The notes below the pieces were generated by a model that worked only from the letters and a program-made list of their open reading frames with translations, was not told where the DNA came from and made no database searches. Of a DNA stretch of 64,000 bases, positions 10,841 to 41,510 are shown piece by piece. This DNA comes from a virus (lineage: Duplodnaviria > Caudoviricetes): positions 28,136 to 92,135 of the IMG/VR virus record IMGVR_UViG_2825563536_000001; one strand, given 5' to 3'. The translations under genes and the position numbers were made by a program. Position 1 is the first letter of the stretch. Each line of letters begins with the position of its first letter.

Positions 10841-11098
10841 CTACGGGCGAATCGCGTCGAAGTAGCGCAGGGCGGCGTCGACCGCCTCCTGCGCGGCGTC
10901 AAGGGCGGCCTCGTCGTTGTCGGCGTCGGCGAAGCGGGCTGCGGCGGCGCGAAACGCGGTCACGTCGGGCTGCGGGCCGTCGATGATGCGGCACGCGGCG
11001 TCGAGTGCGTTACTCGCTGCGGCGGGTGCTACCTCGACGCCTTCGAGTGCGGCGACGGCGGTGCGGAACTCGGCGACTGCGGCGGTGTTGTTGTGCAT
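10841..11098 (-). CDS. small hypothetical protein (cassette gene)
   Basis: GAAAGG RBS, CCCCTACC box and class-A promoter upstream. Confidence 0.65.
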   Translation of the reverse strand: MHNNTAAVAEFRTAVAALEGVEVAPAAASNALDAACRIIDGPQPDVTAFRAAAARFADADNDEAALDAAQEAVDAALRYFDAIRP

Positions 11099-11114
11099 GT
11101 GTATTGCCTTTCGG

Positions 11115-11210
11115 GGTAGGGGTCTTGCCTGCGGGGCGGTGTGCCCTGCTGCCGGTAACGATACGGCGTTTGTGACCCCATGTGCAAACCTGCAGCGTGG
11201 GGTCACAAAC
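11115..11210 (-). promoter_or_regulatory. class-A cassette promoter
   Basis: -35 TTGCAC, -10 TATCGT; perfect 13-bp inverted repeat GTTTGTGACCCCA/TGGGGTCACAAAC around the -35. Confidence 0.7.
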
Positions 11211-13733: not shown

Positions 13734-14075
13734 TTACGCGCCGCGGAGGGGTTCGGGGAGCATCCGCGCCGAGATGGTGACTTCGACGGGGCCTTCCTCG
13801 TAGCGGTCGGCGCTCGCGAGGATGTCGTCGAGGCGGGGGGAGAGGCCCGTGATGTGGCGGCCGCGCCGCCGTCGCGGGAAGGTGCGGATGTTCTCGTCGG
13901 GGAGGGGGCCGTAGTCGGTCCAGCGGCAGCCGGTCGTGACTTCGGCGCACGTGTACTCGATTTCCCATCCGCTGCGCGGGTCGGGGTTGATCCAGTACGT
14001 GAGGTCTGCCGCCGGCGCGGGGAGGCCGAGGTCGACGAGGGCGGCGGACTGCGCGGGCGTTGCGAGTGCGTACAT
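13734..14075 (-). CDS. hypothetical protein
   Basis: AGGA RBS; promoter upstream. Confidence 0.6.
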
Positions 14076-14094
14076 GCGCGTTTCCTATGGTCGT

Positions 14095-14174
14095 GGTAGG
14101 GGCGTCGGGGCCTTCCGGCCTGACGTGACGCAATATTACGCACGGTTACGCACTATTACAAACGGCCTGCGTAA
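14095..14174 (-). promoter_or_regulatory. class-B promoter with TTACGCA/TGCGTAA boxes
   Basis: TTACGCA at 14136 and 14146, inverted copy at 14168; downstream GTCAGGCC hairpin and CCCCTACC box. Confidence 0.65.
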
Positions 14175-14255
14175 CGGTCATGTTCGGGCGTCGGCGGCGC
14201 GTTGCGCGGAGTACGCGCGCGATACGCAGTCGGCGCGCAGCCCGGTACGCGGGCG

Positions 14256-16724: not shown

Positions 16725-17303
16725 TCAGTTGGAGAAGGCGAAGACCTTGCCGTTGTGTTCGGCGAACGTATAGCCCCAGTTCACTTCGGCGATCAGCGCG
16801 AGTGCTTCGCCGTCGATCTGCAGGGCGTGGCGGATGTCGCGCAGGTTCGTGCGGTCGTCCACGGAGACCGGAACGCGCTTGCTGCGGCCCCAGGCGGCGA
16901 CGGTCGCGCCGAGCAGCGGCAGCAGGCCGTCGGTGACGTCTTCGGCCCATGCCTCGAGGTCGTCGTACTCGCCGATGAACCGGACCGGCTCGTAGGCGTA
17001 GGGGTCGTCACTGCCGCCGAGTGCGTAGCGCACGAAGGCGGCGTAGGGGGCGCCGTGCGTGCGGAGGCGTTCGCCGACCTTGGCGACCTGGTCGAGGGGC
17101 ATGGACTCGTGGATGTCGATGCCCTGGAAGTTCTCGGTGTCGAGGATGATCAGCTCCTCGGGGTCGGCGCAGTACGAGCGGGCGCGGAGTTCGGCGACCT
17201 GCGCGTCGAGCGGCTCGTCGGGGTGGAGTTCGAGCCATGCGGAGTTCACGTGGCCGTTGGTGTAGTCGGCCAGGGTTGCGACGTGGATTTCGGGGATGCT
17301 CAT
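16725..17303 (-). CDS. ardA: ArdA-family antirestriction protein (type I RM DNA mimic)
   Basis: acidic; IHVATLADYTNGHVNSAWLEL, EELIILDTENF, FIGEYDD, C-terminal NGKVF. Confidence 0.85.
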   Translation of the reverse strand: MSIPEIHVATLADYTNGHVNSAWLELHPDEPLDAQVAELRARSYCADPEELIILDTENFQGIDIHESMPLDQVAKVGERLRTHGAPYAAFVRYALGGSDDPYAYEPVRFIGEYDDLEAWAEDVTDGLLPLLGATVAAWGRSKRVPVSVDDRTNLRDIRHALQIDGEALALIAEVNWGYTFAEHNGKVFAFSN

Positions 17304-17335
17304 TGTGTGCCTTTCGCCGTGGCAGGGGGCTTGTT

Positions 17336-17396
17336 TGACGTGTTGAACATTAGGTCATAAACGACCCCATGACAAACGCAGAGGTCAGGGGGTCGA
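17336..17396 (-). promoter_or_regulatory. class-A cassette promoter of ardA
   Basis: TTGTCA-17-TAATGT with CGACCCC...GGGGTCG inverted repeat. Confidence 0.75.
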
Positions 17397-23370: not shown

Positions 23371-23378
23371 GTTTGTCC

Positions 23379-26739: not shown

Positions 26740-26812
26740 GCACACGGGGGGCGGGGCGGGGGTGCCGCCCCGCCCCCCATGACCGCACAACAACAGAACA
26801 GGACACACCGAC

Positions 26813-27238
26813 ATGACCGACTACAACATCATCGCGAGGCTGGCCGCCGCCCCGGACGAACCGATCGAAGACCGGGCGCTCGCGCTCGTCGAAGCCTTCG
26901 CCGAGTACGGCCCGTCCGTCGGCCCGCTCGGCAACGGCACCGCCGAACTGACGATCACCGTGCCCGCCGACACCATCCGGCAGGCGATCGACACCGGGTT
27001 CGCGCTGCTCGCCGACCGGGGCGTTCAGCCGACGTCGATCGAGGCTATGACCACCGACGACTGGGACCGCCAGCACGCGATCGACAACTCTGACGACATG
27101 CTGTCCGTCACCCAGGCCGCCGACCTGCTCGGCGTCTCCCGCCAGCGGGTGCTGCAGCGCATCAGCGAGGGCACGATCGCGGCCCGCAAGGTCGGCCGGG
27201 CGTGGGCGATCCCGCGCGGCGCGCTGCAGGCCGCGTGA
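26813..27238 (+). CDS. HicB-like antitoxin with C-terminal excisionase-type HTH
   Basis: acidic N-domain; MLSVTQAADLLGVSRQRVLQRI...KVGRAWAIP; follows hicA. Confidence 0.65.
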   Translation: MTDYNIIARLAAAPDEPIEDRALALVEAFAEYGPSVGPLGNGTAELTITVPADTIRQAIDTGFALLADRGVQPTSIEAMTTDDWDRQHAIDNSDDMLSVTQAADLLGVSRQRVLQRISEGTIAARKVGRAWAIPRGALQAA

Positions 27239-27465: not shown

Positions 27466-27534
27466 GGCGCGTAACGGCCCCCCTCCCGGCAGGCAGGGGG
27501 GCGGCGCCATGTTCGGCGCCCACACAGGACGCCA

Positions 27535-27568
27535 GAAGGCCCCCTCCCGGTCGGGTAGGGGGCCTTCT
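27535..27568. terminator. bidirectional terminator
   Basis: AGAAGGCCCCCT...AGGGGGCCTTCT between convergent genes. Confidence 0.75.
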
Positions 27569-27580
27569 CGTGTTCGGGGG

Positions 27581-27874
27581 CTAGAAGCCGAGGCGGCGCA
27601 GGTCGGCGTACAGGGTGCGGCCGCCGCGGATGAGCGTCGTCGGCCTGACGTACGTCTTGCCGTCGACGTTCGTGAGGACTTTGGGGTCGACGAGCGCGAC
27701 ACCGGCGAGCATCGCGTTCTTGACGCGCTCCGCGGTGGGGTAGTGGTCGACGGCAACTCTGTGCATGTCGGGCACGTCGACGCCGGACCAGATCGGGGTC
27801 ACGTCGTAGAGGCCAAGGCTGCGCACGTGCACGATGTCGACGCGGACGAGGTTGGGGGCGGTGGAGTCGGCCAC
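27581..27874 (-). CDS. cassette gene, hypothetical
   Basis: GAAAGG RBS, two CCCCTACC boxes, class-A promoter. Confidence 0.65.
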   Translation of the reverse strand: MADSTAPNLVRVDIVHVRSLGLYDVTPIWSGVDVPDMHRVAVDHYPTAERVKNAMLAGVALVDPKVLTNVDGKTYVRPTTLIRGGRTLYADLRRLGF

Positions 27875-27987
27875 GGTAGGGGCCTTTCGGGTGGTAGGGG
27901 GCTTGCGCGGGGCGCCAGGCCCGGTCGGCCTGACATGAAGAACATTACGTCATATCCGACCCCTTGACAAGTCGGCAGGTCGGGGAC

Positions 27988-28263
27988 TCAGGCGCGGTCT
28001 TGCGCGGCGGTGATGTCGGCGGCGGTGGCGCCGTGCTGGCGGGCCTGCTCGATGAAGTGCTGCAGGCGGGCGGCGGTGTCGACACCCTTCGCGCCGGGGG
28101 TGTCGCGGTGAATCGCGGTGAACCGGGTGACCATGAGCAGCGCGCGGCGGCGCAGGTCGTTCTCGGTGTCGGCGTCGGCGAGGTCGGCGGCCGGGGCCGG
28201 GGTCGTGCCGCGGACGAGGCGGTTGAGCGCGGCGCGGGCGTCGGGGCCGAGGATGTCGTTCAC
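27988..28263 (-). CDS. cassette gene, hypothetical
   Basis: AGGAAAGGA RBS + GTG; class-A promoter; C-terminal ARQHGATAADITAA resembles 34540..34698. Confidence 0.6.
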   Translation of the reverse strand: MNDILGPDARAALNRLVRGTTPAPAADLADADTENDLRRRALLMVTRFTAIHRDTPGAKGVDTAARLQHFIEQARQHGATAADITAAQDRA

Positions 28264-28383
28264 GGTGTCCTTTCCTGTCAGGCCCGGTCGGCCTGGCATG
28301 AAGAACAATAGGTCATATTCGACCCTATGACAAACAGGCTGGCCAGGAGTCATAAACGCCCCTGACCAGCCCGTGCGGCGGTC

Positions 28384-29160
28384 CTACAGGTTCAGATCGG
28401 CCAGTGCTTCGCGAGCCAGATCGAGGTGTGCGAGTTTGTCGTCGAGCCGACGGTGCAGGATGTCCATAATCTCCGCGTTCTCCCGCGCGCGGGCGATCAG
28501 GTCGACCGTCGACCACGCCTCGAACCCTGCAGGCGCCTCGTCGGTCTCCGCGGTTTCCGGCCCAGCGGCCACCTGCAGGACCGACGGGACCGGGGCGGGC
28601 ACATGCACCGGCAACGACGGCGCCGTGTCCGTGGTGGCGACCACAGGCTCCGCCGGCGCGACGTCCCGCGCGGGCGTGTCCGACAGCTGCAGCTCGTCCT
28701 CATGCCCGCGCATGTGCCGCGAGTACGCGGGCGTGCTCGCGAACTTGCGGTCACACAGGACGCACAGGCGGTCCGGGCCGTGACTGTTCGACAGGTGCGA
28801 GACCATCGCCATGCGCTTGTCGGTGAGGTACCCGCCGCACTCGGCAGGGTTCGGGCACACGTACGTCCCGCCGACCGGCTCGGGAAGCGTGATCTTCGAC
28901 TTCCGCTCCCACGCCTTGATCGGCTTCTCTGCGTTCTCGCGAACACGCGGGGCCGACATGTCGCGGCTGATCGACGTCGTCGTCTTGCCGTCGGGCGCGT
29001 ACAGCAGCATGTGCCCTTTCGCCGACCGGCGAGCGAGCCACCCCGCCTTGATCGCGCGCCGGACGAGAGATTTTGCGAAGTCGTCGAATCCGCCGAGATT
29101 GGGGTTCTTCGTGAACGCGCCGTTCGATTCGGGTTCTGAATGCTTGGCAGTTGCAGTCAT
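28384..29160 (-). CDS. HicA-like domain fused to C2H2 zinc fingers
   Basis: AIKAGWLARRSAKGHMLLYAPDG; CPNPAEC...HLSNSH and CVLC...HMRGH. Confidence 0.65.
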   Translation of the reverse strand: MTATAKHSEPESNGAFTKNPNLGGFDDFAKSLVRRAIKAGWLARRSAKGHMLLYAPDGKTTTSISRDMSAPRVRENAEKPIKAWERKSKITLPEPVGGTYVCPNPAECGGYLTDKRMAMVSHLSNSHGPDRLCVLCDRKFASTPAYSRHMRGHEDELQLSDTPARDVAPAEPVVATTDTAPSLPVHVPAPVPSVLQVAAGPETAETDEAPAGFEAWSTVDLIARARENAEIMDILHRRLDDKLAHLDLAREALADLNL

Positions 29161-29274
29161 AAGAGACTCGATTCTAAGTAGTCCAGGGTTTCACCATTTC
29201 GCCTGGTAGCGGGGCCTGTTTGGGACTTTAGTCCCGAACCAGACGAACGGTCGGTCAACGCTACCGAGGGGTGA

Positions 29275-29314
29275 ACGGCCCCCGCCCACGTGCAGAAACG
29301 TGAGCGGGGGCCGT
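29275..29314. terminator. intrinsic terminator
   Basis: ACGGCCCCCGCCCACGT...ACGTGAGCGGGGGCCGT. Confidence 0.65.
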
Positions 29315-29323
29315 AGTTGTGGA

Positions 29324-30070
29324 CTAGGCGGTCAGCGCGCGGCGGCCGTTCAGGGCGGTGTCGCCGACGTTCGCGCGGTTGCCCGCCTCCTTGCCTGCGT
29401 CGCCCGCGCCGGGGTCGTAGCCGCCCCGGTAGCGGTTCGAGATAACGCGGGTGCGAGGCCCGAGCAGGTCGGCGCGGAGCTGCTCATTCGCCCGCTTCGC
29501 CTCGTCGACGAGCACGAGCGCAGCGCCCGGCCCGGCCGCTTCGGTCGCCTGCGTTTCGGCCTGGCCGAGCCGCTCGGAGATCGTCTGGTAGAAGCCGAGC
29601 ATCCAGGAGCGGCGGAAGGTCGCCGTGGCGGTGCGCGACCCGGCGGGCGGCTTCACGCGGGAGGCCCCGACGAGCATCTGCGAGTTGAGCATCGAGAACA
29701 GCACCCGCACCCGGTCGACGTTCAGCTCGGTCCCGTACAGGTAGTCCGTCGCGTCGGGGCTGCTGAACGTGCCACCGGCGGTGATCGCGGAGCAGTGCAG
29801 CGATTCCGCGATCATCTGCAGGAGCGACCGCTGCACGGTGAGGTACTTGCCGCTCAGGTTGAACGTCGTGTGCACGATCGGGGCGGGGCCGTCGCTGTCG
29901 CGGCGCAGGGCCTCCGCTTCGTCGATGCCGTACTTCGCCAGCAGCGCGATCGCCTTCTCGTTGAACACGTCGGCTTCCGGGGTTCCGGCGACGTCCTGGG
30001 CCTTGCGGAACAGGCCGCGGATCGTTTCGAGCTTCTTGGCGCGGCGCTCGGCGGTGATGTTGTCAGTCAT
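29324..30070 (-). CDS. DUF2786-family protein (cassette gene)
   Basis: LETIRGLFRKAQ...TPEADVFNEKAIALLAKYGIDEA; FRRSWMLGF; G..AG.RANVG. Confidence 0.8.
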   Translation of the reverse strand: MTDNITAERRAKKLETIRGLFRKAQDVAGTPEADVFNEKAIALLAKYGIDEAEALRRDSDGPAPIVHTTFNLSGKYLTVQRSLLQMIAESLHCSAITAGGTFSSPDATDYLYGTELNVDRVRVLFSMLNSQMLVGASRVKPPAGSRTATATFRRSWMLGFYQTISERLGQAETQATEAAGPGAALVLVDEAKRANEQLRADLLGPRTRVISNRYRGGYDPGAGDAGKEAGNRANVGDTALNGRRALTA

Positions 30071-30198
30071 GTGAGCTGACCTTTCTGTCGTGGTAGGGGC
30101 TGCCCGGCCTGTCGGCCTGACGGGTTGAACTTTACGTCATATCCTGTGCCTAGTGCAAACCGGGGGTGGTTCGCCCTGACCAGGGAGTGAAGGGGGGT

Positions 30199-30229
30199 GC
30201 CCCCGGCCGCGTGCCCTGCGGCCGGGGGC
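30199..30229 (-). terminator. repeated terminator hairpin with AGGGCAC loop
   Basis: GCCCCCGGCCGC-loop-GCGGCCGGGGGC just after stop. Confidence 0.7.
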
Positions 30230-30235
30230 GGTGAG

Positions 30236-30457
30236 CTAGCCGAGCAGGCAAATCTCACCGGGCGGGTTCGGGGTGGTGCCGGTGCAGCAACCGGTGCAGT
30301 AGCACTGGGTGCGGCGGTCGTGCAGGCACTTCACGCCGGGCGGGTTGTCGTGCAGGCCCTGCGAGAGGCAGTTGATGCAACCGCACTCGCGATCGGGTCC
30401 GTGCTCGACGTTCTCGAAGAACTCCCAGTCCTGCGCGGAGAAACCCTGGACGCGCAT
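30236..30457 (-). CDS. small Cys-rich cassette gene
   Basis: GAAGGGAG RBS; ECGCINC, KCLH, QCYCTGCC. Confidence 0.6.
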   Translation of the reverse strand: MRVQGFSAQDWEFFENVEHGPDRECGCINCLSQGLHDNPPGVKCLHDRRTQCYCTGCCTGTTPNPPGEICLLG

Positions 30458-30776
30458 GTTGCGCTCCCTTCACTCTGTTGACTTGTACTGCCTGCCAGGC
30501 CCGGTCGGCCTGACATGAAGAACATTACGTCACAAACAACCCCTTGTGCAAACCCGCAGGCCAGGGGTCATAAATTGCCTCATGTCCACGTCGGGCGGCC
30601 GCGGTCGCGCGGTGCAGGCGCCCCGCCCCGGTGATCGGGCCACGCTGCGCGCCGAACCGGGACGCCCGCGCCCGATGTAGCCGGGACACCCCTTCGGGCG
30701 CCCAGTGGGCAGCCAGGCCCCAGGAACGCGGAAACCCCAGCTCGTAGCGAACTGGGGTCTCGGCCGGGCGACGGGG

Positions 30777-31100
30777 TCAGGCGCGTGGGCGCACCTCGAA
30801 CCCGAGCGCGTCCGCGAGTAGGCGCATCAGGGCCTCGGCGGTCGGGTACGGCGTCGACAGTGTCGCGTGCCCGACGGCGCGCGCGTGCCCCACCTGATCG
30901 GTGCACTCGCACTCCCCTGCGTCGACGCCGATGCCGGTCAGTGGGCGGCCGTCGACGATCGACTCGTCCAGCTGCCACCCGGTCCCGGCCTCGTTCACGT
31001 GCACGAAGACCTGCAGGACGTCGTCGACCCGGTGCCACCGGTCCGACCCAAGCTGCGCGGCCGGGCGGTCTTCCGCCGGCGTCGCAGAGCAAGCGATCAT
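30777..31100 (-). CDS. hypothetical protein
   Basis: GAGGGAGG upstream of MIACSA; hairpin 30731-30760 downstream; start uncertain. Confidence 0.5.
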   Translation of the reverse strand: MIACSATPAEDRPAAQLGSDRWHRVDDVLQVFVHVNEAGTGWQLDESIVDGRPLTGIGVDAGECECTDQVGHARAVGHATLSTPYPTAEALMRLLADALGFEVRPRA

Positions 31101-31309
31101 CCCCGCTGCCTCCCTCGTGTGTCGCGGCTGCTGAACCGCGGTTGAACAGTAGTCCGGGTTGACTTGTGCGCATCGCCGTGTCAGCGAAATGACCGCCAAC
31201 CTCTCGGTTTGTCTAGGGGTAGTTTCCTGCGTATTGTTCATGGTGTTCGGCCGACCGGCCGGGCGCCCCGCGGGGGGCATCCCCGCACAACCCGAAAGGG
31301 GTGGTCAAC

Positions 31310-31591
31310 ATGACCGCAACGTTCAACCTCGTCACCGCCGATGAGGCGGACTTCGCCGCCCTGCGCGAGCAGGCGGACGCGGACCAGGCCGAGCTGGTGC
31401 GCATCGGCGCCGAGGGCACCGACGCCGAGGTGCGCGCCGCACGGCTCCCCGAGTCGGTCGCGACCCTCGCGGTTGCGCTGGATTCGTCCCGCCCGGCGGC
31501 GGCGATCCGGCGTGAGCTGGACGACCGCCTCGAGCTGTCGAAGCTCGTCACCCTGCTGCGCCGCAGCGGGGAACTCGACGGGATCGCGTAG
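31310..31591 (+). CDS. cassette gene, hypothetical
   Basis: class-A promoter 31209, RBS. Confidence 0.65.
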   Translation: MTATFNLVTADEADFAALREQADADQAELVRIGAEGTDAEVRAARLPESVATLAVALDSSRPAAAIRRELDDRLELSKLVTLLRRSGELDGIA

Positions 31592-31741
31592 GCGATCGGG
31601 GGCGTCCCGAGGGTGCCGGGACGCCCCCCACCGGGGGTAGCAAACAACCCCCAGCCTGCAGGTTTGTCCCAGGGTCATATACGGCCTACAGTTCATCACG
31701 TCGGGCAACAGCGCCCGACACTCACAGCAAGGAGTCAGCAA

Positions 31742-32170
31742 ATGACCGCCCCTACCACCGCCGCCCAGCTCGCCACCGCCACCGAGGGGCGCGCTGCCGA
31801 GGTCCGCGCCGCCCACGCCCGCGCGATCGTGGAGCCGTACGTCGACCCGCTCGTGACCCTGTTCTCGGACCGCTACGACGCCGAGCTGACCGCCCTGACC
31901 GAGCGCGGCGGCATGGCGGGCATCCGCTGCACCGGCGGGAACTTCCTCGCGATCGAGGGCACCGCCGGGCTGTCGCCGGATAACCGCGTGATGTTCTTCC
32001 TCGCCACCAACACGATCGAGGGCGGCCTCGCCGACACCCCCGACGAGGGCAACGGGTGGGCCGTCGGTCTGTACGACGCCGACACGGACGAGATGCTGGC
32101 GCACGGCGACGACGCCGACATCACGGTCGCGCACTCGGCGGCGTTCGCGCGCCTTCGCGGCCGCAAGTAG
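31742..32170 (+). CDS. cassette gene, acidic hypothetical
   Basis: AAGGAG RBS, promoter 31664, terminator 32181-32217. Confidence 0.7.
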   Translation: MTAPTTAAQLATATEGRAAEVRAAHARAIVEPYVDPLVTLFSDRYDAELTALTERGGMAGIRCTGGNFLAIEGTAGLSPDNRVMFFLATNTIEGGLADTPDEGNGWAVGLYDADTDEMLAHGDDADITVAHSAAFARLRGRK

Positions 32171-32360
32171 AAGCCCGACCGGAAAGGCCCCGACGCACCG
32201 CGCGCCGGGGCCTTTCCCGTGTTCGAACCATAGGCGGTTTATGACCCCTGGCCTCTTGGTTTGTCAAGGGGTTGTTTCTGACCTACAGTTCTTCATGTCA
32301 GGCCGACAGGGCCTGGCCCCCGGCGGGGGGTTCCCGCCCCAGTCCCCACAGGAGGACGAC

Positions 32361-32633
32361 ATGCTCGCAACCATCACCCGCAAGGCACGCTTCGCCGATG
32401 CCGAGCGTTACTCCGCGGCCGTCGCCGACGCCGACCTCGCGGACCAGCTCGCTCAGCTCGTCGAGGGCTACTGGCACTTCCAGGCCCGCCTCGACGCCCT
32501 GCAGGGTCCGGCCGGAAAGGCGCTCCCGTGGCGCACTCGCCGCCGCCACATCCGGGCGGCCCGGTTCGTCGCGGAGACGACCTACGCGCGGGCTGCGGTG
32601 CTCAGCGACCGCATCGCGAAGCTGATCTACTGA
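32361..32633 (+). CDS. cassette gene, hypothetical
   Basis: AGGAGG RBS, promoter 32261. Confidence 0.7.
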   Translation: MLATITRKARFADAERYSAAVADADLADQLAQLVEGYWHFQARLDALQGPAGKALPWRTRRRHIRAARFVAETTYARAAVLSDRIAKLIY

Positions 32634-32649
32634 CAGCCGAGCAACACAC

Positions 32650-32686
32650 GAACCCCCCGACCACAGGGCACGCGGTCGGGGGGTTC
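32650..32686 (+). terminator. repeated terminator hairpin with AGGGCAC loop
   Basis: GAACCCCCCGACC...GGTCGGGGGGTTC. Confidence 0.7.
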
Positions 32687-32714
32687 CCCATATTCGCTGG
32701 GGGTTCACTGCGAG

Positions 32715-33180
32715 GCGCGGCGCGGTGCGGCGGCTGCGGTGCGGCGCGCCCGTCCGCCCGGTGGGCCGTGGGGGGCGGCGATCGCCCGGTGCCGCGGGTG
32801 CCGCGGGTGCCGCGCGGCGTGCGGCGGGGGTGCGGCGCCAGTTCCCCACCAGCCGGACCGGGGTGCGGCACCGGTGCGGCGGGGCCGACGCCGGCGGGCC
32901 GGGTCCACACGTGGGGAGCTGGGGCTGAGTTCCGGGTGCGGCGGGGTGCGGCATGGCTGTGACCTGCGGTTGCCGCACGTGCCGCAGTCTGCGCCGCAGG
33001 CGCGGCGGCTGGGTGCCGCAGGCGCGGCGAGGGTGCGGCACCGGTGCGGCGGGCGGGGTGCGGCGCCCTGCAAGACGGTGCGGCACCGGTGCGGCGGCGA
33101 TCGCGAGGGGCGACGGCCGACCGGGGCGCCGCGCGGCGTGCGGCGGGGCGCGGCGGCGGTGCGGCGGGGTGCGGCACGAG
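32715..33180. repeat. non-coding block 1 of GTGC(G/C)GC(A/G)C repeats
   Basis: about 22 TGCSGC copies by hand count; TGACCTGCGGTTGCCGCAC at 32960. Confidence 0.85.
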
Positions 33181-33305
33181 GGGCAATATCCGGCCCAACC
33201 TGCACGGTTGCCCCCGATTTGCACAAGGGGTCGTGTCGTGCGTATAGTTCATCTCGTCAGGCCGACCGGCCGAGACGCCCCTACCGCAACAGAAAGCAGG
33301 CCGAC

Positions 33306-33716
33306 ATGATCTCCGACAGCAAGACCGAGGCCCCGACGATCACCGGCGAGATGGTCCGGTACGCGTACAGCTGCGCCGGCGGCGCCGCCCGCGTCACGCT
33401 CCCGCAGGTGACCCAGCGCCTGCACGGCTTCCCGGTTCGCTACACCCTGTCGATTGACCAGACCTACGCCTACCAGTCGTCCTTCGCCGTCGAAGTGTTC
33501 TCCCTGTCGACGAAGTCGTGGGGCGAGCTGTGGACCCTTCCCGGCAAGGACTTCGCGCCGTCGATCCTGGGGGCCGACAAGCCCACCGGGCAGATCGGCC
33601 TGCAGCTCGCCCCGACCCCCGCCTCCCGCGGAGGGACCGACTACGAGGCGATCGCGCGGTCGTGGCAGCAGGTGTTCAACCGGCTGTTCGAACACGCGGA
33701 GTTCGTGCTCCGGTAG
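33306..33716 (+). CDS. cassette gene, hypothetical
   Basis: promoter 33219, CCCCTACC, RBS. Confidence 0.7.
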   Translation: MISDSKTEAPTITGEMVRYAYSCAGGAARVTLPQVTQRLHGFPVRYTLSIDQTYAYQSSFAVEVFSLSTKSWGELWTLPGKDFAPSILGADKPTGQIGLQLAPTPASRGGTDYEAIARSWQQVFNRLFEHAEFVLR

Positions 33717-33864
33717 TGAGCGCGGGGGCGGGGTCGCGAGGCCCCGCCCTCGAAGGGTCGTTTATGACCCCCGACCTCTCGGTTTGTCAAGGGGTCGTTT
33801 CCTGTGTAATGTTCTTCATGTCGGGCAGCCCGCCCGGCGCCCCTACCGCCCCCTTGGAGGAATC

Positions 33865-34203
33865 ATGCCGAAGCCGACCACGATCACCGTCGAACTCCCG
33901 GTCTGCGTCACCATCGCCAACTCGATCGCCGCCGCCGGGCGCGTCGCCCGCCGCACCGCCCGCGACCTCGAGCGCAACGCCCGGCAGGCAATCGAAGACC
34001 TCGAACGCGGGATTCTGCCGCGCGACGCGGACAACGGCCGCCTGACCGAGGAGTACGCGGGGGCTATCGAGAACCTCTCCCAGCTCTCGATCCTCGCCCG
34101 CTCGGTGAACCTGCCCGAGACCCACGTCGACGCCCTGATCCGGGACAACGCCGACGACTGGTTCCGGTACGTCCTCGCCGACGGGACCGAGGTTCACGGG
34201 TAG
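33865..34203 (+). CDS. cassette gene, hypothetical
   Basis: promoter 33784, CCCCTACC, GGAGG RBS. Confidence 0.7.
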   Translation: MPKPTTITVELPVCVTIANSIAAAGRVARRTARDLERNARQAIEDLERGILPRDADNGRLTEEYAGAIENLSQLSILARSVNLPETHVDALIRDNADDWFRYVLADGTEVHG

Positions 34204-34539
34204 CAAGCAACCGGTCCGCAACCGGACCTGACGCCCCACCAGACGGCCGCGTGCACCCCCGCCGGGACACGCGGCCGTTGCCGTACGCGCGGGGAGCCTG
34301 GTGGGCGCCTGGGGGTGGGCCGCCGACGAGGCGGCGGGGCATCGGCCGGCAGGCGGACGCCAGCGGACCACCAGGGCCACCACGGGGCCGCGCTCGGGCG
34401 TCGACCCGGTCGAGCTACACGCGGACGGCCAGTGGGGACTGGGGCCTCGACAACGCAGAAGGCCCGCCCCTCGGGTGAGGGGCGGGCCTATGATGAGCGG
34501 GCGTCGGGGGGCGGCACCCACGCCCCCCGCCGCACCTGC

Positions 34540-34698
34540 CTACCGGGCGGACTCGATCTGCGCTTCGGTCGCGCCGAGGTTGCGAGCTTCGGCCTCCCAG
34601 GCGGCGAGCGCACCGGCGACGGCCGGGTCGGTCTTCGCGCGGGCGACCATCGCGAGGGCGCGGGTCAGGCGGTAGGTGGTAGGGGCGGTGTTCGACAT
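34540..34698 (-). CDS. cassette gene, small hypothetical
   Basis: GGAGG RBS, promoter 34791(-), hairpin 34457-34488 downstream. Confidence 0.6.
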   Translation of the reverse strand: MSNTAPTTYRLTRALAMVARAKTDPAVAGALAAWEAEARNLGATEAQIESAR

Positions 34699-34840
34699 GC
34701 CGTCCTCCGTAGGACTCGGGCGGGAACCCCCCGCCGGGGTGTCGGGCCGGTCGGCCTGACATGACCAACTATAGGTCATTACCTACCCCTAGACAACCCT
34801 GCAGGCCAGGGTCATAAACTGCCCCCAGTTGGGGGTACGG

Positions 34841-34877
34841 GAACACCCCGGCCGCGTGCCCTGCGGCCGGGGTGTTC
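34841..34877 (-). terminator. repeated terminator hairpin with AGGGCAC loop
   Basis: GAACACCCCGGCCGC...GCGGCCGGGGTGTTC. Confidence 0.75.
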
Positions 34878-34884
34878 GCGTCGA

Positions 34885-35244
34885 CTAGTACCAGCGCCAG
34901 ACGCTCGGCGCGTCGCCGTACTGCGGCAGCACGTCGACGAACTTCGCGGCGACGAGGCCGTCCGGGCGGGCCTCGATCGCGCATCCGGTCGACAGAGTCG
35001 CCACGAAGTGCAGGAACTCGACGTCCAGCGCGTCGGCCTGGTCCGCCGCGAGCGCCGCGACGAACACCGGCACGTCGGAGGCGTGTTCGGCGACGAGCAG
35101 CAGGCAGTTCTGCCCGTCCTCGCGGATGCCGGTCTCGACGGCGAGCCGGGCGTCCCGCATCGACCGCGACATCGCGAGGGCGGTGTCGGCGGCGTCGGCG
35201 GCCGCCTCGAGGGCCGAGGTGGCGATGTGGAGGCTGTAGGTCAT
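34885..35244 (-). CDS. cassette gene, acidic hypothetical
   Basis: GAAGG RBS, promoter 35320(-). Confidence 0.65.
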   Translation of the reverse strand: MTYSLHIATSALEAAADAADTALAMSRSMRDARLAVETGIREDGQNCLLLVAEHASDVPVFVAALAADQADALDVEFLHFVATLSTGCAIEARPDGLVAAKFVDVLPQYGDAPSVWRWY

Positions 35245-35531
35245 GTGGTGCACCTTCGTTCGAAGTGTGTCGAAGCCGGTCGGCCTGACGAGATGAACAT
35301 TACGTCATATCCGACCCCTTGACAAATCACCTGACCAGGGGTTGCAACCGACCCCTTTAGGGTGGCGCCGCCCGCCGGTAGCGCGGCCCGTTTCGATGCG
35401 CCAACAAGGGGCAGAATCAGACCCCAGCCTCGCGGTTTGTCAAGGGGTCGTTTCCTGCGTATCGTTCACTCGGTCAGGCCGGGCCGCAGGTGTCGGCCGC
35501 CGGCAACCGAGACCCCACCACGGAGGAAGTC

Positions 35532-35798
35532 ATGCACGAAGGAACCCGCCCGACCCCGGCCGAGTTCGAGGCCACCAACTCGCGGGGCCTGTTCGCGAAC
35601 CTCGACCGCGCGACGTCGACGAAGTGCGCTTACGAGGCGTCCGGGTACACCGCCCGCGCTCGCGTCGTCGGCGCCGAGATCGAGGTGAAGGTCACCGACG
35701 GCGAGGGCAATCAGCTCATGCACGTGCTGTGGCCCTATCGGGGGCAGCCGTACGCCTACGCCCGCACGCTCGACGCGATGCTTCGGCACTGGGCCTGA
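35532..35798 (+). CDS. cassette gene, hypothetical
   Basis: GGAGG RBS, promoter 35437. Confidence 0.65.
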   Translation: MHEGTRPTPAEFEATNSRGLFANLDRATSTKCAYEASGYTARARVVGAEIEVKVTDGEGNQLMHVLWPYRGQPYAYARTLDAMLRHWA

Positions 35799-35974
35799 CG
35801 GTCGACCGGCAAGGCGCGCGCCTGGATTGCACCGAAACAAGGGGTAGAAACTGACCCCACGCTGCGGAGTTGTCAAGGGGTCGTTTCCTGTGTAATGTTC
35901 TTCATGTCAGGCCGACCGGCCCGACACCCCCGCCGGGGGCTGCCACCCCCGGCACAACCCGAAGGGAGCGCACG

Positions 35975-36154
35975 ATGGGCGCAGAAAGCCTCAGCAACGA
36001 GGGCCTGGCCGAACGGCTCGCAAAGACCAAGCGTCAGCGCGAGCGGCTGGTCCTCGAGGGTCGGTTCCGCACCGACTCGGACCGCCGCCTCATGGAGGTC
36101 TGCTGCAGGGCGATCGACGAGCTGACCGGCGAGACCCGCCGCCGCAGCGAGTAG
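35975..36154 (+). CDS. cassette gene, small hypothetical
   Basis: GAAGGGAG RBS, promoter 35870, terminator 36163-36196. Confidence 0.65.
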   Translation: MGAESLSNEGLAERLAKTKRQRERLVLEGRFRTDSDRRLMEVCCRAIDELTGETRRRSE

Positions 36155-36214
36155 CCCCGAAGCGAAGCCCCGCCCCTCACGAAGGGGCGGGGCTTCCCCC
36201 GTTTCAGGGGCTGA

Positions 36215-36410
36215 CGCACCACGTGCGGCGCGGGGTGCCGCAGGGTGCGGCACAGGGTGCGGCACGCGGCCCCGGTCCGGCTGGTGGTCCACTGGGGTCC
36301 GCGGCGGTGCGGCGCGGGTGCCGCACCCCCTGACCTGCGGCTGCCGCACCTGCCGCAGCCGACGCCGCACCGGCTGCCGCACCGCGCCGCAGTGCCGCAG
36401 TGCCGCATAC
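36215..36410. repeat. non-coding block 2 of GTGCSGCRC repeats
   Basis: about 12 TGCSGC copies; TGACCTGCGGCTGCCGCAC at 36331. Confidence 0.85.
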
Positions 36411-36512
36411 GACCCCCGATCTGCGGAGTTGCACCAGGGGTCGTGTCATGCGTATAGTTCACCCCGTCAGGCCGACCGGCTCGACGCCCCACACGACAGC
36501 AAGGAGCCGATC

Positions 36513-36737
36513 ATGGCATGGGACTTCCAGGACGTACTGCTCGGCGCAGCGGAGGCCGAGGTGCCCCGCCTCGAGCGCGAGTTGCAGGACAAGTTCGCTG
36601 CACTGCGCAAGTGCACCACCCCGGACGCCGTCGAGCGCGTCGCCCGCGAACTGCGCCGGGTCGCCGACGGCCTCGCGACCGCGCACACGCACCGCGTGAC
36701 CGCAGCCGCACACATCGCGGCCCGCGACGGCGCGTAG
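36513..36737 (+). CDS. cassette gene, helical hypothetical
   Basis: AAGGAG RBS, promoter 36429. Confidence 0.65.
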   Translation: MAWDFQDVLLGAAEAEVPRLERELQDKFAALRKCTTPDAVERVARELRRVADGLATAHTHRVTAAAHIAARDGA

Positions 36738-36750
36738 CCCCGACACATGG

Positions 36751-36783
36751 ACCCCCCGACCGCAGGGCACGCGGTCGGGGGGT
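36751..36783 (+). terminator. repeated terminator hairpin with AGGGCAC loop
   Basis: ACCCCCCGACCGC-AGGGCAC-GCGGTCGGGGGGT. Confidence 0.75.
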
Positions 36784-36998
36784 TCTGTCGTTCGCGGAGT
36801 CCCAGCTCCCCACCAGCCCGCGTGGCGCAGCTCGACCAGGCGCGGGTAGGCGGGCGGGCCGATCGTCCGCCCAGTGGGTACCCAGGCCCCCGCCGGCGGA
36901 AAACCTGGATTGACCTGCAGAAACCGTTGACCTCAAGAGGTCTATGTCGTATAGTTGAAGGCATGTCGCCGCAGGTCAAAGCCCAAAAGGAGGCCCCG

Positions 36999-37271
36999 AT
37001 GCGCGCACCGGTCGACAGCCTGGTCCGGTCGGTCGCGATCGCGGCACGCGGGGGAGACGTGCGCGTCGTGTGCGTCGACCGGTACGTCGTGCGCGCCTTC
37101 GGTCGCCCGCCCGCGATCGAGCACGCGGTGACCGTGTGCGACGGCGACGGGAACCCGATCGGCTCGCACGTGCGGCGGTGCCCGGCCGAGCTGGACGCCC
37201 TTGAGTACGCGCGGGCGGTGTGGCGCGAGCTGCGCGCGACGGCCGACGGGCAGCCTTGGTTTCGGGCGTAA
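36999..37271 (+). CDS. cassette gene, hypothetical
   Basis: AAGGAGG RBS; TTGACC-17-TATAGT promoter; alternative in-frame leaderless ATG at 36963. Confidence 0.65.
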   Translation: MRAPVDSLVRSVAIAARGGDVRVVCVDRYVVRAFGRPPAIEHAVTVCDGDGNPIGSHVRRCPAELDALEYARAVWRELRATADGQPWFRA

Positions 37272-37376
37272 AGGAGTCCCAGCCTGCAGAGTTGCACTAG
37301 GGGTCATTACCTGTGTAATGTTCATCATGTCAGGGCAGCAGCCCCGACGCCCCTACCGCAACAGAAAGGCCCCGAC

Positions 37377-37586
37377 ATGGCCTCCGTAATCGTCGTCCGC
37401 GCCGCCGGCGTCGGCTCTCCCGAGCGCGTCCTCGCCACCACCTTCGGCGAGACCAGCCGCGAGACCGTCGCCCGCCACTTCCCCGGCGCGATCTTCGACA
37501 GCGAGGGCGGGTTCGACCTGCCCGACACCGCCGAGAACGGCATCGGCGGCGGCTACGTGTTCGACTGCGTCCGCGTCGACGAGTAG
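37377..37586 (+). CDS. cassette gene, small hypothetical
   Basis: promoter 37292, CCCCTACC, GAAAGG RBS. Confidence 0.65.
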   Translation: MASVIVVRAAGVGSPERVLATTFGETSRETVARHFPGAIFDSEGGFDLPDTAENGIGGGYVFDCVRVDE

Positions 37587-37661
37587 CCCCGACCGGTCGG
37601 GGCCGTCGCGATCGGCGGCCCCGGCACTGCGCCCCTACCGCAACCCCGAGAGGAACCCGTC

Positions 37662-37970
37662 ATGCCTGAAATCGAAATCCCCGCGAAGTACATCCGCATC
37701 ATCGTCGAGGCCGCCGCGGACCTTCACGAGGCCGCCACCGTCCGCGACCGGACCCGCCATGCGGACATCCTCGCCGCTGTCGCCGAGTCCGGGTGCGCGT
37801 TCACCGGCGTGCCCCTGCCGAGCTTGCTCTCCGGCCCCGCCCACGAACTGGTTGCCGAGCGGCCCCGGCCGTCGTTCCTCACCTCCACCGTGATCCAGCG
37901 GCGCGAGTGGGAGACCGGCCTCGAGGCCGACTACCGCTCCCGCCTCGAGGCCGCCCTCGCCGCAGTCTGA
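37662..37970 (+). CDS. hypothetical protein
   Basis: CCCCTACC 37632, GAGGA RBS. Confidence 0.65.
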   Translation: MPEIEIPAKYIRIIVEAAADLHEAATVRDRTRHADILAAVAESGCAFTGVPLPSLLSGPAHELVAERPRPSFLTSTVIQRREWETGLEADYRSRLEAALAAV

Positions 37971-37974
37971 CCCA

Positions 37975-38125
37975 CCCCCTGCCGCACCCCCTGCCGCACC
38001 CTGCGGCGGGGGGTGCTGTCGTTGTGCGGCGCGAGTGCGGCGCGGGTGCGGCACGAGAGTGCGGCACCCGGAATGACCTGCGCGGCAGCACGCCGCAGCT
38101 GGTGCGGCACAGGTGCCGCAGTAGG
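37975..38125. repeat. non-coding block 3 of GTGCSGCRC repeats
   Basis: about 9 TGCSGC copies; TGACCTGCG at 38074. Confidence 0.8.
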
Positions 38126-38237
38126 GGCAGTTTATGACCCCCAGCCTGCGGGTTTGTCAAGGCGTCGTAAATGACCTATCGTTCTTCATGTCAAGCCGAC
38201 CGGGCCTGGCGCCCTTGCCGCACCGAAGGAACCCGAC

Positions 38238-39077
38238 ATGCCGAAGCTCACCGCCGCACAGTCCGCCGCACTCGACATCATCAACCGCGACGGCGCCCTG
38301 TACGCCGGCAACAAGGTCAGCATCAAGACGGTGCGAGTCCTCGAACGACTCGGCCTGGCCACCGTCGAGGCGAAGGTCGCATGGACCAACCCGACGATGA
38401 ACGCCCGCGCTCGCGGCGCCTACCCCAAGCCCTACCTCGACTGGGTCGCGAAGCGCGTCGAGGCCCCCGCCGGCGAGGCCACCGCCGAGCAGCCCGCCCA
38501 GGACGCCCAGGCGGATCGAGATATGGGCACCATCCACGACCGCGTCGTCAAGGTCGCCAGCGCCGCACCTGCCGATCAGGTCAAGGCCGCCTACCTCGCC
38601 GCCCTCGCAGCTATCGACACCCCGAACGCTCGAGCACGGGCCGCGCGGACCCGCAAGGCTGAGCGCCTGCTCGCCGAGCTGCTGGGTGACCTGTTCGAGA
38701 AGCGCCGCTACCTCGCCGCCTACGTCCGCGCCCTCGACGGCGTCATCTATGGCGATGACGAGCCCACCCAGGACGCCCAGGCGGACCACACCCCGGACCC
38801 CGCCGCCGCAACCTCCGAGTGGGCCACCGAGGAGTCCACGGAGGAGCTGGACGCCTGCGAGGCCCGCGCCATGCACACCCTGCAGATCGGCGGGTACCGG
38901 GCGAAGGTCGTCGAGTTCACGTGGGACACCGGCGCGCGGCTGCTGATCTGGCACGAGGACCACGGCCGGGTGCCGCTCGCCGACGACGACGCCGACGGGT
39001 TCGGGGTCCGGTTCGACAGCCTCGACGAAGCGCAGGACGCCGCGGGGGCGACGCTGTACGACCTCGTGCCGATGTAG
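38238..39077 (+). CDS. cassette gene, multi-domain hypothetical (N-terminal wHTH-like)
   Basis: promoter 38154; KLTAAQ...TVRVLERLGLA; internal 25-bp direct repeat. Confidence 0.7.
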   Translation: MPKLTAAQSAALDIINRDGALYAGNKVSIKTVRVLERLGLATVEAKVAWTNPTMNARARGAYPKPYLDWVAKRVEAPAGEATAEQPAQDAQADRDMGTIHDRVVKVASAAPADQVKAAYLAALAAIDTPNARARAARTRKAERLLAELLGDLFEKRRYLAAYVRALDGVIYGDDEPTQDAQADHTPDPAAATSEWATEESTEELDACEARAMHTLQIGGYRAKVVEFTWDTGARLLIWHEDHGRVPLADDDADGFGVRFDSLDEAQDAAGATLYDLVPM

Positions 39078-39216
39078 CTGAGCGCCGGTCGGCCGGCGGA
39101 TTCCTCTCCCAACCAGGGGGATTCCGCCGGTTTGTCAAGGGGTCGTTTATGACGTAATGTTCTTCATGTCAGGCCGACCGGGCCTGACGCCCCTACCGCC
39201 CCGAAAGGCAGGCATC

Positions 39217-39549
39217 ATGCCCGCGACCGCCACCCACCCCCTCACCTTCCGCCGCAACACCGAAGGCATCTACCGCGCCGAACTCGACGGCCTCCGCTAC
39301 GACATCAGCCGACACGGCAGCAGCTGGGTTCTCCGGGTCCGCAAGCTCACCGAGACCGCCGGTGTCACCCACGCGCTCGGTCAGCCCGTCATTGACGCCG
39401 ACCGCGCCGACCGCCTCGGCGACTGCAAGGCCGTAGCGCAGGAATACCACGCCCTCGCCGACGACTATCGCACCGATTCCAGCCCCGCGATCCACGGCCA
39501 CAAGTCCCGCATGACGACCGCGATCTGCAAGGCGTACGCCCGCCTCTGA
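39217..39549 (+). CDS. cassette gene, hypothetical
   Basis: promoter 39132, CCCCTACC, RBS. Confidence 0.7.
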   Translation: MPATATHPLTFRRNTEGIYRAELDGLRYDISRHGSSWVLRVRKLTETAGVTHALGQPVIDADRADRLGDCKAVAQEYHALADDYRTDSSPAIHGHKSRMTTAICKAYARL

Positions 39550-39568
39550 CCCCCACCGAAACGACGAC

Positions 39569-39603
39569 AGACCCCCGACCGCAGGGCACGCGGTCGGGGG
39601 TCT
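39569..39603 (+). terminator. repeated terminator hairpin with AGGGCAC loop
   Basis: AGACCCCCGACCGC-AGGGCAC-GCGGTCGGGGGTCT. Confidence 0.8.
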
Positions 39604-39609
39604 TCTCGT

Positions 39610-39895
39610 ATGTGCCGCAGGTGCCGCAGCAGGTGCGGCGCGCGGTGCCGCAGCCGCGGCGTAGGTGCGGCGCGCGGTGCGGCGCGACCCCGGTGTGAGC
39701 GCGGCGCTGGGGGCCTGCCGCACCGGGTGCCGCAGCTGCGGCGGGGGTGCGGCACCCCCTGCGGCATGGGGGTGCGGCAGTGCGGCAACCGCAGGTCAGA
39801 GGGTGCGGCGCGGGTGCGGCGCGCAGTGCCGCGCCCCGGTCGGCCCGCCGGATGTGCCGCAGTGCGGCACCGTGCCACGCCGCAGCTGCGGCGCT
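39610..39895. repeat. non-coding block 4 of GTGCSGCRC repeats
   Basis: about 19 TGCSGC copies; reverse TGACCTGCGGTTGCCGCAC at 39780-39798. Confidence 0.85.
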
Positions 39896-39963: not shown

Positions 39964-40218
39964 ATGCCACGCGAAGGCGACTGGTGGACGGCGCAGGACT
40001 GCGCCGACTACCTCGGCATCAAGCCGCGAACCTGGCACGCCTACGTACGTCGGCCGGGCGTCCAGAACCCGGTGCCGCAGCCCGTCGCGAAGTTCGGCGC
40101 GACACCGATCTGGAACTCCGACGCCGTCCGCGAGTACGCCGCGAACCGGCAACGCAAGACGAAGACACAGCACCACCCGCAGCCCCTACCGCAACCCACA
40201 CTCAGAAAGCGCGCCTAG
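39964..40218 (+). CDS. AlpA/excisionase-like HTH protein
   Basis: WTAQDCADYLGIKPRTWHAYV...PQPVAKFGATPIW. Confidence 0.7.
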   Translation: MPREGDWWTAQDCADYLGIKPRTWHAYVRRPGVQNPVPQPVAKFGATPIWNSDAVREYAANRQRKTKTQHHPQPLPQPTLRKRA

Positions 40219-41404: not shown

Positions 41405-41408
41405 ACAC

Positions 41409-41458: not shown

Positions 41459-41510
41459 GAGGGCGTGCCCCTACCACAGGTCATGCGCTCGGGTTACAGC
41501 TTACAGGCAT

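Follow-up and report, generated by a model that had tools for sequence, protein, structure and literature searches.

A repeated promoter-hairpin-leader module precedes small unrelated genes in a Prescottella equi phage-plasmid

Why would a temperate phage place one and the same module in front of a series of small, unrelated genes that face both ways? The question is raised by positions 27581-39603 of a 64-kb window of DNA (the whole stretch analysed, 70% G+C), which covers bases 28136-92135 of a 92,135-bp record; coordinates below are window positions unless a record position is specified. The record corresponds to plas1, a circular plasmid found in Prescottella (Rhodococcus) equi DSSKP-R-001 (NZ_CP027794.1). 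Its genes include a complete siphovirus virion module together with a tyrosine integrase, YqaJ exonuclease, SSB, two C5-methylases, a UvrD helicase, ArdA and two Rep-like initiators. Since a virion module is combined with integrase, recombination and Rep-like genes on a circular plasmid, we conclude that the record is a temperate phage maintained as a plasmid (phage-plasmid). An earlier note on this DNA had described an array of self-contained gene units in both orientations, and our analysis bears this out.

The module is apparent from short words as well as from profiles. Its 14-mer core, GTCAGGCCGACCGG, occurs 46 times at up to three mismatches, against 27.8 +/- 5.6 in shuffled sequences, and all 12 matches with at most one mismatch between 27.9 and 39.2 kb lie within one common context of ~90 nt. 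The profile search that the earlier note had proposed for this genome, run with nhmmer on a profile trained on 13 copies, gave 18 strong matches (E 8e-24 to 1e-11): 17 within the array (27.9-39.2 kb; 11 plus-strand and six minus-strand copies) and one before ardA. Three weaker, degenerate copies were also found, two at 11157-11210(-) and 14097-14184(-) and the third at record position 10542-10609(+). Copies are homologous from about -65 up to the ATG, where the similarity ends; just 7.5% of pair-ends show it continuing past ATG+6, for the most part because extraction windows overlap. The element was absent from all other sequences searched (IMG/VR, GTDB representative genomes, JGI metagenomes, cultured phages and PLSDB). 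Exact and degenerate pattern scans of the first three returned single chance matches and no arrays, and with megablast and blastn the record matched only itself among the plasmids of PLSDB, with no match for the element among cultured phages.

All parts of the module follow one order: a GGGG..GACCCC site, a -35 hexamer, GGGGTC in the spacer, a -10 hexamer, a hairpin at the predicted +1, a C-rich leader, a ribosome-binding site (RBS) and the ATG. The -35 is TTGTCA or TTGCAC; the spacer to the -10 measures 17-18 nt and starts with AGGGGTCG; the -10 is TAATGT or TATAGT (TAnnGT). The earlier description of a near-consensus sigmaA promoter thus holds for the spacing but less well for the -10, as TAATGT matches TATAAT at only three of six positions, though it fits the actinobacterial TANNNT. 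The GACCCC and GGGGTC half-sites reported around the -35 are indeed present in most copies: GGGGTC follows the -35, at -29 to -24, in 16 of 18, and GACCCC stands ~21 nt upstream of it in about 13 of 18. In most copies there is an upstream dyad of variable sequence, GGGGnn-N6-GACCCC, that spans roughly -68 to -51. Hence, as in a repressor-operator regulon, an operator-like dyad overlaps the core promoter at many promoters. GGGGTC-type dyads were found at promoters only, with no stand-alone GGGGTC-N6-GACCCC site outside them.

Seven bases, often TCTTCAT, follow the -10, and then comes GTCAGGCC-GACC-GGCCTGAC, which folds as a hairpin from nucleotide 1 of the predicted transcript in 16 of 19 copies. 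This hairpin comprises 7-8 bp in 21 nt (+1 to +21) and has energies of -10 to -17 kcal/mol (mean z -2.6). Its stems vary by compensatory changes (GGCC/GGCC versus GGGC/GCCC), G-U pairs occur in ten copies, and folding is more stable for the sense than for the antisense strand (p = 0.03). The element therefore does contain a stem-loop, as previously noted, but one that lies downstream of the promoter at the predicted +1 and is not a terminator before it. After the hairpin come a second hairpin or the C-rich motif CCCCTACC, and then GAAAGG or GGAGG, which are complementary to the 3' end of 16S rRNA. The ATG stands 34-69 nt from the predicted +1, and every copy is followed by an RBS and an open reading frame (ORF). 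In the record as a whole, CCCCTACC occurs 23 times against 7.7 expected; 21 of these sites read in the sense direction of the gene beside them, most of them 8-35 nt ahead of its start codon with GAAAGG after them, and none of the 23 lies among the virion genes. The motif is also found before genes that have no promoter copy (for example at 12566, 12840, 18322 and 37632), suggesting that it is a separate start-associated signal.

Of the 21 ORFs that the array contains, 17 come directly after a module, one (37662-37970) is second in a two-gene unit and three have other promoters (Table 1). The earlier picture of one module for one small unrelated ORF, often with a terminator of its own, is mostly right; the exceptions are the three ORFs starting at 28384, 30777 and 36999 and the single module that drives two genes. 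ORFs behind modules have a G+C content at third codon positions of 0.89-0.97 and coincide with RefSeq coding-sequence calls. No similarity was detected among the cassette ORFs, and in Pfam and PHROGs only the DUF2786/DUF7168 protein had a match (phrog_421); for the ORF of cassette 11, a search of 1.84 billion representatives matched only the ORF itself. Most units are closed by hairpins with energies of -26 to -40 kcal/mol. Terminators were judged by such energies, because a scan that requires a U-tail is uninformative in DNA of 70% G+C. Five terminator hairpins (30175-30228, 32650-32701, 34822-34875, 36741-36790 and 39564-39609) have a common loop, CGCAGGGCACGCG, and similar G/C stems, and form a second repeated element in the array.

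Table 1. Predicted transcription units of the array and copies of the module elsewhere in the window
Feature	Span (strand)	Components	Remarks
Cassette 1	27515..27988 (-)	module 27908-27988; ORF 27581-27874 (97 aa); terminator hairpins 27515-27568, -43.6 kcal/mol	nhmmer E 2.4e-23
Cassette 2	27988..28360 (-)	module 28276-28360; ORF 27988-28263 (91 aa); no own terminator	73% G3 homolog behind G3-type promoter
ORF 28384-29160 (258 aa)	28384..29323 (-)	upstream region not the element	only weak zinc-finger Pfam matches
Cassette 3	29262..30171 (-)	module 30094-30171; DUF2786/DUF7168 ORF 29324-30070; terminator 29262-29314	
Cassette 4	30175..30578 (-)	module 30490-30578; ORF 30236-30457 (73 aa, Cys-rich); terminator with CGCAGGGCACGCG loop	
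ORF 30777-31100	30719..31184 (-)	degenerate promoter (TACTGTTCAACC)	back to back with module 5
Cassette 5	31185..31652 (+)	module 31185-31269; second leader hairpin; ORF 31310-31591; terminator	
Cassette 6	31638..32237 (+)	module 31638-31706; ORF 31742-32170 (142 aa); terminator	
Cassette 7	32234..32701 (+)	module 32234-32323; second leader hairpin; ORF 32361-32633; terminator	
Cassette 8	33205..33770 (+)	module 33205-33283; ORF 33306-33716 (136 aa); terminator	89% homolog GS982_20495
Cassette 9	33757..34292 (+)	module 33757-33838; ORF 33865-34203; terminator	best O1 palindrome AGGGTCGTTTATGACCCC
Cassette 10	34450..34821 (-)	module 34735-34821; second leader hairpin; ORF 34540-34698 (52 aa); terminator	
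Cassette 11	34822..35352 (-)	module 35263-35352; ORF 34885-35244 (119 aa); terminator	orphan
Cassette 12	35412..35798 (+)	module 35412-35481 (atypical leader); ORF 35532-35798	
Cassette 13	35843..36209 (+)	module 35843-35932; second hairpin; ORF 35975-36154 (59 aa); terminator	
Cassette 14	36403..36790 (+)	module 36403-36491; ORF 36513-36737 (74 aa); terminator with CGCAGGGCACGCG loop	
ORF 36999-37271	36927..37271 (+)	different promoter at 36927-36955, TTGACC-17-TATAGT	perfect palindrome GACCTCAAGAGGTC in spacer
Cassette 15	37266..38026 (+)	module 37266-37349; ORFs 37377-37586 and 37662-37970; terminator	second ORF: CCCCTACC leader, no promoter
Cassette 16	38126..39131 (+)	module 38126-38216; ORF 38238-39077 (279 aa); terminator	
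Cassette 17	39121..39609 (+)	module 39121-39195; ORF 39217-39549 (110 aa); terminator with CGCAGGGCACGCG loop	
ardA copy	16725..17393 (-)	module 17336-17393; ardA 16725-17303	nhmmer E 7e-12; Pfam ArdA E 2e-11
Degenerate copy 11157-11210	10841..11210 (-)	perfect 12-bp inverted repeat (GTTTGTGACCCC / GGGGTCACAAAC) around -35; ORF 10841-11098	followed by UvrD-type helicase
Hybrid copy 14097-14184	13734..14184 (-)	common backbone and hairpin; ORF 13734-14075	three TGCGTMAC sites 10 bp apart replace GGGGTC

Close relatives of the array were traced through NCBI locus tags, 90% clusters and a word-based protein search. Two strains of P. equi, GS982 and GS502, have them on contigs of 104.6 and 101.9 kb, respectively; the order of cassettes is colinear with that described here, and backbone proteins are 96-99% identical (96-97% for the integrase, XRE, ArdA and YqaJ). 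The individual slots, named here by the first position of their ORF, range widely: two are 100% identical (33865 and 35975), nine are 91-99% identical, slot 33306 stands at 89%, and eight (27581, 30777, 31310, 32361, 34540, 34885, 37662 and 38238) have no counterpart above 90%. In slot 31742, GS982 has a 58% allele that is identical over its first 11 residues and then diverges, which would place a junction ~33 nt inside the ORF, next to the module. One interval of the array holds five genes in the close relatives and four here, and the C-terminal ~100 amino acids of the 279-aa protein of cassette 16 are 80% identical to a GS502 protein with a different N-terminus. We infer that this slot-wise mosaicism is the pattern to be expected if exchange occurs at modules. 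The comparison of content and order that the earlier note had called for was thus informative about mosaicism, while breakpoints at the element would be placed there by protein identities and locus-tag order only. Among the 18 copies themselves, a pairwise homoplasy index (PHI)-type test on the 49-nt core gave p = 0.015, which lends weak support to recombination among copies. The RecET-type pair that had been named as a candidate agent is present, as a YqaJ exonuclease (Pfam) and a RecT-like annealase (phrog_561, E 4e-49).

We also compared the array with more distant relatives: Streptomyces phage Hiyaa (NC_048139) and the IMG/VR proviruses 2651869698_000005 (G3) and 2711768098_000003, whose major capsid proteins are 50-71% identical to that encoded here (G3, 70%). 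These relatives share the layout described here: a dyad covers the -35 and spacer, the -10 is of the TAnnnT type, a 5' hairpin is frequently present, and an RBS and a single small ORF follow. The sequences of their modules are wholly different, and the nhmmer profile, which the earlier note had hoped would identify the element in related genomes, matched nothing in Hiyaa, G3, a provirus designated G2 or Gordonia phage Aleemily. In G3 the module consists of GTGACA, a spacer palindrome (TTACATAC-N3-GTATGTAA) and TAATCT, and has six copies besides the one before ardA. It precedes each small gene at the left end, and a further copy is at the place corresponding to record position 10542 here. G2 has two copies of a CATAC-N3-GTATG type. 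Hiyaa has 29 copies in both orientations (NC_048139 33220-83219), each reading ACTTGCGC-N6-GCAAG..TGTGATTTAAT and followed by a GGGGG/CCCCC hairpin, RBS and ATG; we found no published description of this repeated module. Array size thus varies among related genomes, from about 2-3 through 5-6 to the 17 units of the array here.

Orthologous ORFs (the DUF2786 gene at 44% identity, the ORF at 27988 at 73%, ArdA, and that at record position 10542) carry the promoter type of whichever phage they reside in. This suggests that modules are homogenised within a genome, with ORFs inherited or exchanged independently of them. G3 has the DUF2786 gene, one small helix-turn-helix (HTH) ORF and then the DUF2637 gene, whereas 9.8 kb of cassettes separate DUF2786 from DUF2637 here; the array is therefore hyperplastic and is flanked by conserved anchors. 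Compared with G3, the segment that runs from HTH_17 to DUF2786 has the opposite orientation with respect to DUF2637. In Aleemily, an intergenic repeat of a different kind is present in six copies between small leftward genes (40158-43748); its reverse complement reads like the T-arm plus acceptor stem of a tRNA (GGTTCGATTCC...), and no tRNA is annotated there.

We favour, at a probability of about 0.65, the interpretation that the array is a coordinately regulated, recombination-prone promoter regulon in which the module serves as a complete, reusable expression module. Host RNA polymerase with its principal sigma factor (SigA holoenzyme) would read TTGTCA/TTGCAC, the 17-18 nt spacer and TAnnGT, and would start at the G of GTCAGG. 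A phage-specific DNA-binding regulator, most likely a repressor, would bind the GGGGTC/GACCCC dyads at about -68 to -51 and in the spacer, thereby switching ~20 transcription units together (the 17 cassettes, ardA and two or three others). It is established in other systems that 5'-terminal stem-loops block the entry of RNase E/J, and the hairpin that begins at transcript nucleotide 1 may likewise shield these short monocistronic mRNAs from 5'-end-dependent RNases. The CCCCTACC leader and GAAAGG would then form a start-associated translation signal, and strong terminator hairpins would insulate the units, so that each could function in either orientation. Near-identical repeats of 60-130 nt, in both orientations and beside unrelated ORFs, would be a natural substrate for homologous recombination in a phage that carries RecT/YqaJ. 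Recombination among modules would keep them alike within one genome while allowing cassettes to be gained, lost, swapped or inverted. As for timing, expression soon after entry or induction seems likeliest, given that ArdA has to act when the DNA enters and that, in two phages, its gene has the promoter class of the small genes: the association of ardA with the cassette promoter proposed earlier is found here and again in G3, with the promoter type of that provirus. The further proposal of an immediate-early library for host takeover or anti-defence is more tentative, since ArdA is the only gene that speaks for it and the other ORFs have no Pfam or PHROG function.

What the proposed regulator might be is best considered together with the other promoter classes of the phage. 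The immunity/integration module (23361-25841) comprises an XRE-family HTH gene, a 211-aa ORF and the tyrosine integrase. The XRE gene (23361/23379-23801(+)) has a low G+C content, was overlooked by gene finding based on third-position G+C, and diverges from the early RecT/YqaJ recombination/replication operon. The ORF after it (23866-24501) had no match in Pfam or PHROG and has HMLGH in place of HEXXH; from this motif alone it reads as ImmA/IrrE-like. A second site, TGCGTMAC, occurs 12 times against five expected, often at 10-bp intervals, including the XRE/early intergenic region (23140-23157), a promoter at 18.35 kb (18341-18381) and the hybrid copy at 14.1 kb (14125-14175). It is also present in the corresponding region of G3, which is without the palindrome of the G3 cassettes. 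The phage thus seems to have at least two operator-coded promoter classes on one -35/-10 backbone, plus a third variant at 36927-36955. Candidate binders of GGGGTC are the small HTH proteins encoded at 25983-26333 (phrog_597; no homolog detected in G2 or G3), 26813-27238, 39964-40218 and 40218-41132.

Several of these observations weigh against a repressor-controlled regulon. The XRE intergenic region and three other early promoters bear TGCGTMAC, a different site, and no GGGGTC dyad was found between 23090 and 23360, where a repressor encoded by the XRE gene would be expected to have its own operator; the immunity repressor is therefore probably not the GGGGTC binder, to judge from the distribution of sites, and cassette expression in the carrier state is conceivable. 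Among the half-sites only the left one, GGGGTC, is near-universal, leaving the dyad geometry ambiguous. The ardA copy has no 5' hairpin, and the PHI signal is weak and could have its source in constrained recurrent mutation.

The main rival builds on that separate operator class at the immunity region, which keeps it alive. It regards the units as morons expressed constitutively from the resident phage-plasmid (defence or fitness genes, for example), with the dyads serving for lytic shut-off or having no regulatory role. Each cassette is bounded by a promoter and a terminator of its own, as morons are by definition, and the site beside the integrase/immunity genes and a HicA-like/HTH pair is the usual place of variable genes expressed in lysogeny. 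We nevertheless consider it unlikely: besides the promoter shared with ArdA, which is needed at DNA entry, copies of the class are found in the replication/recombination region (11157-11210 and record position 10542), twenty strong unregulated promoters would be unusual, and the core promoter is overlapped by the dyads. An extension of the regulon interpretation, which we hold only tentatively, is that the module is a lineage-wide plug-in socket in Hiyaa-like phages and Prescottella/Gordonia proviruses. Each phage would have a private operator-regulator pair and a 5' hairpin/leader of its own that a phage RNA-binding factor recognises, and RecT/YqaJ recombination within modules would be the main route by which counter-defence genes are acquired and exchanged. 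If so, a gene recombined between two modules would join a transcriptional and a post-transcriptional regulon at once.

It is improbable that the promoters form a middle or activator-dependent class, in which the dyad near -40 is bound by a phage activator or sigma-like factor. The GACCCC-N21-GGGGTC pair does straddle the -35, and phiC31 offers a precedent with its non-sigma70 early promoter class and sigma-like protein. However, a -35 matching TTGACA at five of six positions, a 17-nt spacer and a TANNNT -10 are already adequate for host holoenzyme, half-sites 27 bp apart would misfit the dimer of a class II activator, and the window yielded no gene for a sigma factor or an activator. Least probable is that the repeats are mobile or site-specific elements, either like miniature inverted-repeat transposable elements (MITEs) with outward promoters or like integron attC hairpins for the neighbouring tyrosine recombinase: they do have inverted termini and a hairpin and the integrase lies 1.7 kb from the array, but every copy has a fixed distance and orientation before an ORF, none lies inside a gene or elsewhere in the public genomes searched, no target duplications were seen, the hairpin is only 21 nt with a stem that varies with compensation, and orthologs of the integrase are found at the ends of ordinary proviruses. 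We therefore rejected the MITE-like and the integron-like form alike. Integron cassettes are promoterless, attC-ended, in one orientation and next to intI/attI/Pc, whereas those here carry promoters and face both ways, and the integrase is of an ordinary phage type.

Some further features of the array and its surroundings may be mentioned. The array lies between tail/replication genes and the integrase/immunity module, beside the HicA-like/HTH pair (26539-27238). This pair, which adjoins the integrase, consists of a small basic HicA-like ORF (phrog_2089) and, after it, the gene of an acidic protein whose C-terminal part is an HTH_17 domain; it may be a toxin-antitoxin-like pair, and the arrangement is kept at the left end of G3. 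Four non-coding blocks within the array (32700-33190, 36225-36410, 38020-38120 and 39610-39880) are packed with 7-mers, GTGCGGC to one side and GCCGCAC to the other, that converge on a TGACCTGCG core; these 7-mers number 157 in the window and are concentrated in the four blocks. Given that the circular phage-plasmid carries ParB and two Rep-like genes, the blocks have the look of dispersed centromere or iteron sites. A perfect bidirectional terminator of 20 bp (AAAATCCCCCGGTCCCGTTT / AAACGGGACCGGGGGATTTT) stands at 41411-41457, between the DUF2637 gene block and a Rep-like gene; an Rfam search at E up to 0.1 gave only spurious miRNA-like matches, at this terminator near 41.4 kb. Among the virion genes, the one for the major capsid protein (60850-61785) has a product with 62% identity to its Aleemily counterpart and 50% to its Hiyaa counterpart, and a 1,583-aa ORF (52201-56952) is, by its position, a candidate tape-measure gene.

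The two analogues suggested earlier, the promoter-early-stem-loop (PeSL) cassettes of T4-type phages and the start-associated sequences (SAS) of Cluster K mycobacteriophages, are apt as analogies. PeSLs are sigma70-type promoters with an N17 spacer joined to stem-loops and present in many copies (PMC4122927; Arbiol et al. 2010 cited there); they cluster in hyperplastic regions of small ORFans and are linked to insertions, replacements and deletions between close relatives (PMC4122927). Here too, there are many near-identical sigma70-like promoters with a spacer of ~17 nt (18 copies) in a hyperplastic region whose ORFans differ between close relatives. The stem-loop of a PeSL, however, is a terminator before the promoter, whereas the conserved hairpin here is at +1 and the terminators are separate and heterogeneous (five share a loop); for want of that terminator stem-loop before the promoter, the module falls outside the definition of a PeSL. 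It also adds operator-like dyads and a conserved leader, and differs in host phylum and phage lineage. The likeness to SAS concerns the leader only. SAS are 13 bp long (GGGATAGGAGCCC), contain the Shine-Dalgarno (SD) sequence, stand 3-7 bp from the start and are not promoters; together with the extended form (ESAS), they are asymmetric, cluster-specific motifs that stand in sense orientation before the starts of non-structural genes, whether or not an inverted repeat lies upstream (PMC3203893). CCCCTACC is likewise asymmetric, sense-oriented before starts and missing from virion genes, but it precedes GAAAGG, a distinct SD, and its distance from the start is 8-35 nt. RNA-compensating changes like those of the 5' hairpin here are not shown by ESAS repeats.

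Among temperate actinophages, the claim that no such element had been described holds for this sequence family and not for the kind of system. Cluster O mycobacteriophages have more than 30 copies of 17-bp dyad repeats, and recombination between repeats explains indels there (PMC4351075). These dyads, and the stoperators of Cluster A, resemble the present case as sets of at least 30 short, phage-specific, binding-site-like repeats, many in short intergenic gaps; they are bare sites of 13-17 bp, many of them inside genes, whereas here whole promoter-leader modules are repeated. The temperate actinophage phiC31 likewise has repeated promoters directly before early genes and a repeated palindromic operator: its sequence contains 9-10 near-identical early promoters (GGGTTGCCGAC..CCCTTAC) and at least 11 copies of the palindromic CIR operator CCTACTCACGTGAGTAGG, which reportedly function as such. 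Unlike the module here, the phiC31 promoter is not sigma70-like, operator and promoter are separate elements, and there is no sequence similarity between the two; phiC31 early genes all face one way, operon-like, with no 5' hairpin noted. We conclude that the kind of system is already known from T4-type PeSLs, phiC31 and some mycobacteriophages, and that what is new is the sequence family and the way in which one module, used in both orientations, unites a sigma70-type promoter with an operator, a +1 hairpin and a leader.

The array offers a compact, testable model of how a temperate actinophage may wire ~20 orphan genes into one regulon with a plastic region, in a phage-plasmid where one promoter backbone appears to serve two or more operator-coded classes. 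It is also a potential source of strong promoters, operators, terminators and a candidate mRNA-stabilising 5' hairpin for Rhodococcus/Prescottella genetics. If the regulon interpretation is right, its 20 small orphan proteins would be co-regulated with ArdA and would be candidates for host-interaction or counter-defence functions. The recurrence of one architecture with private sequences in Hiyaa and two proviruses suggests a lineage-wide design that has so far gone undescribed.

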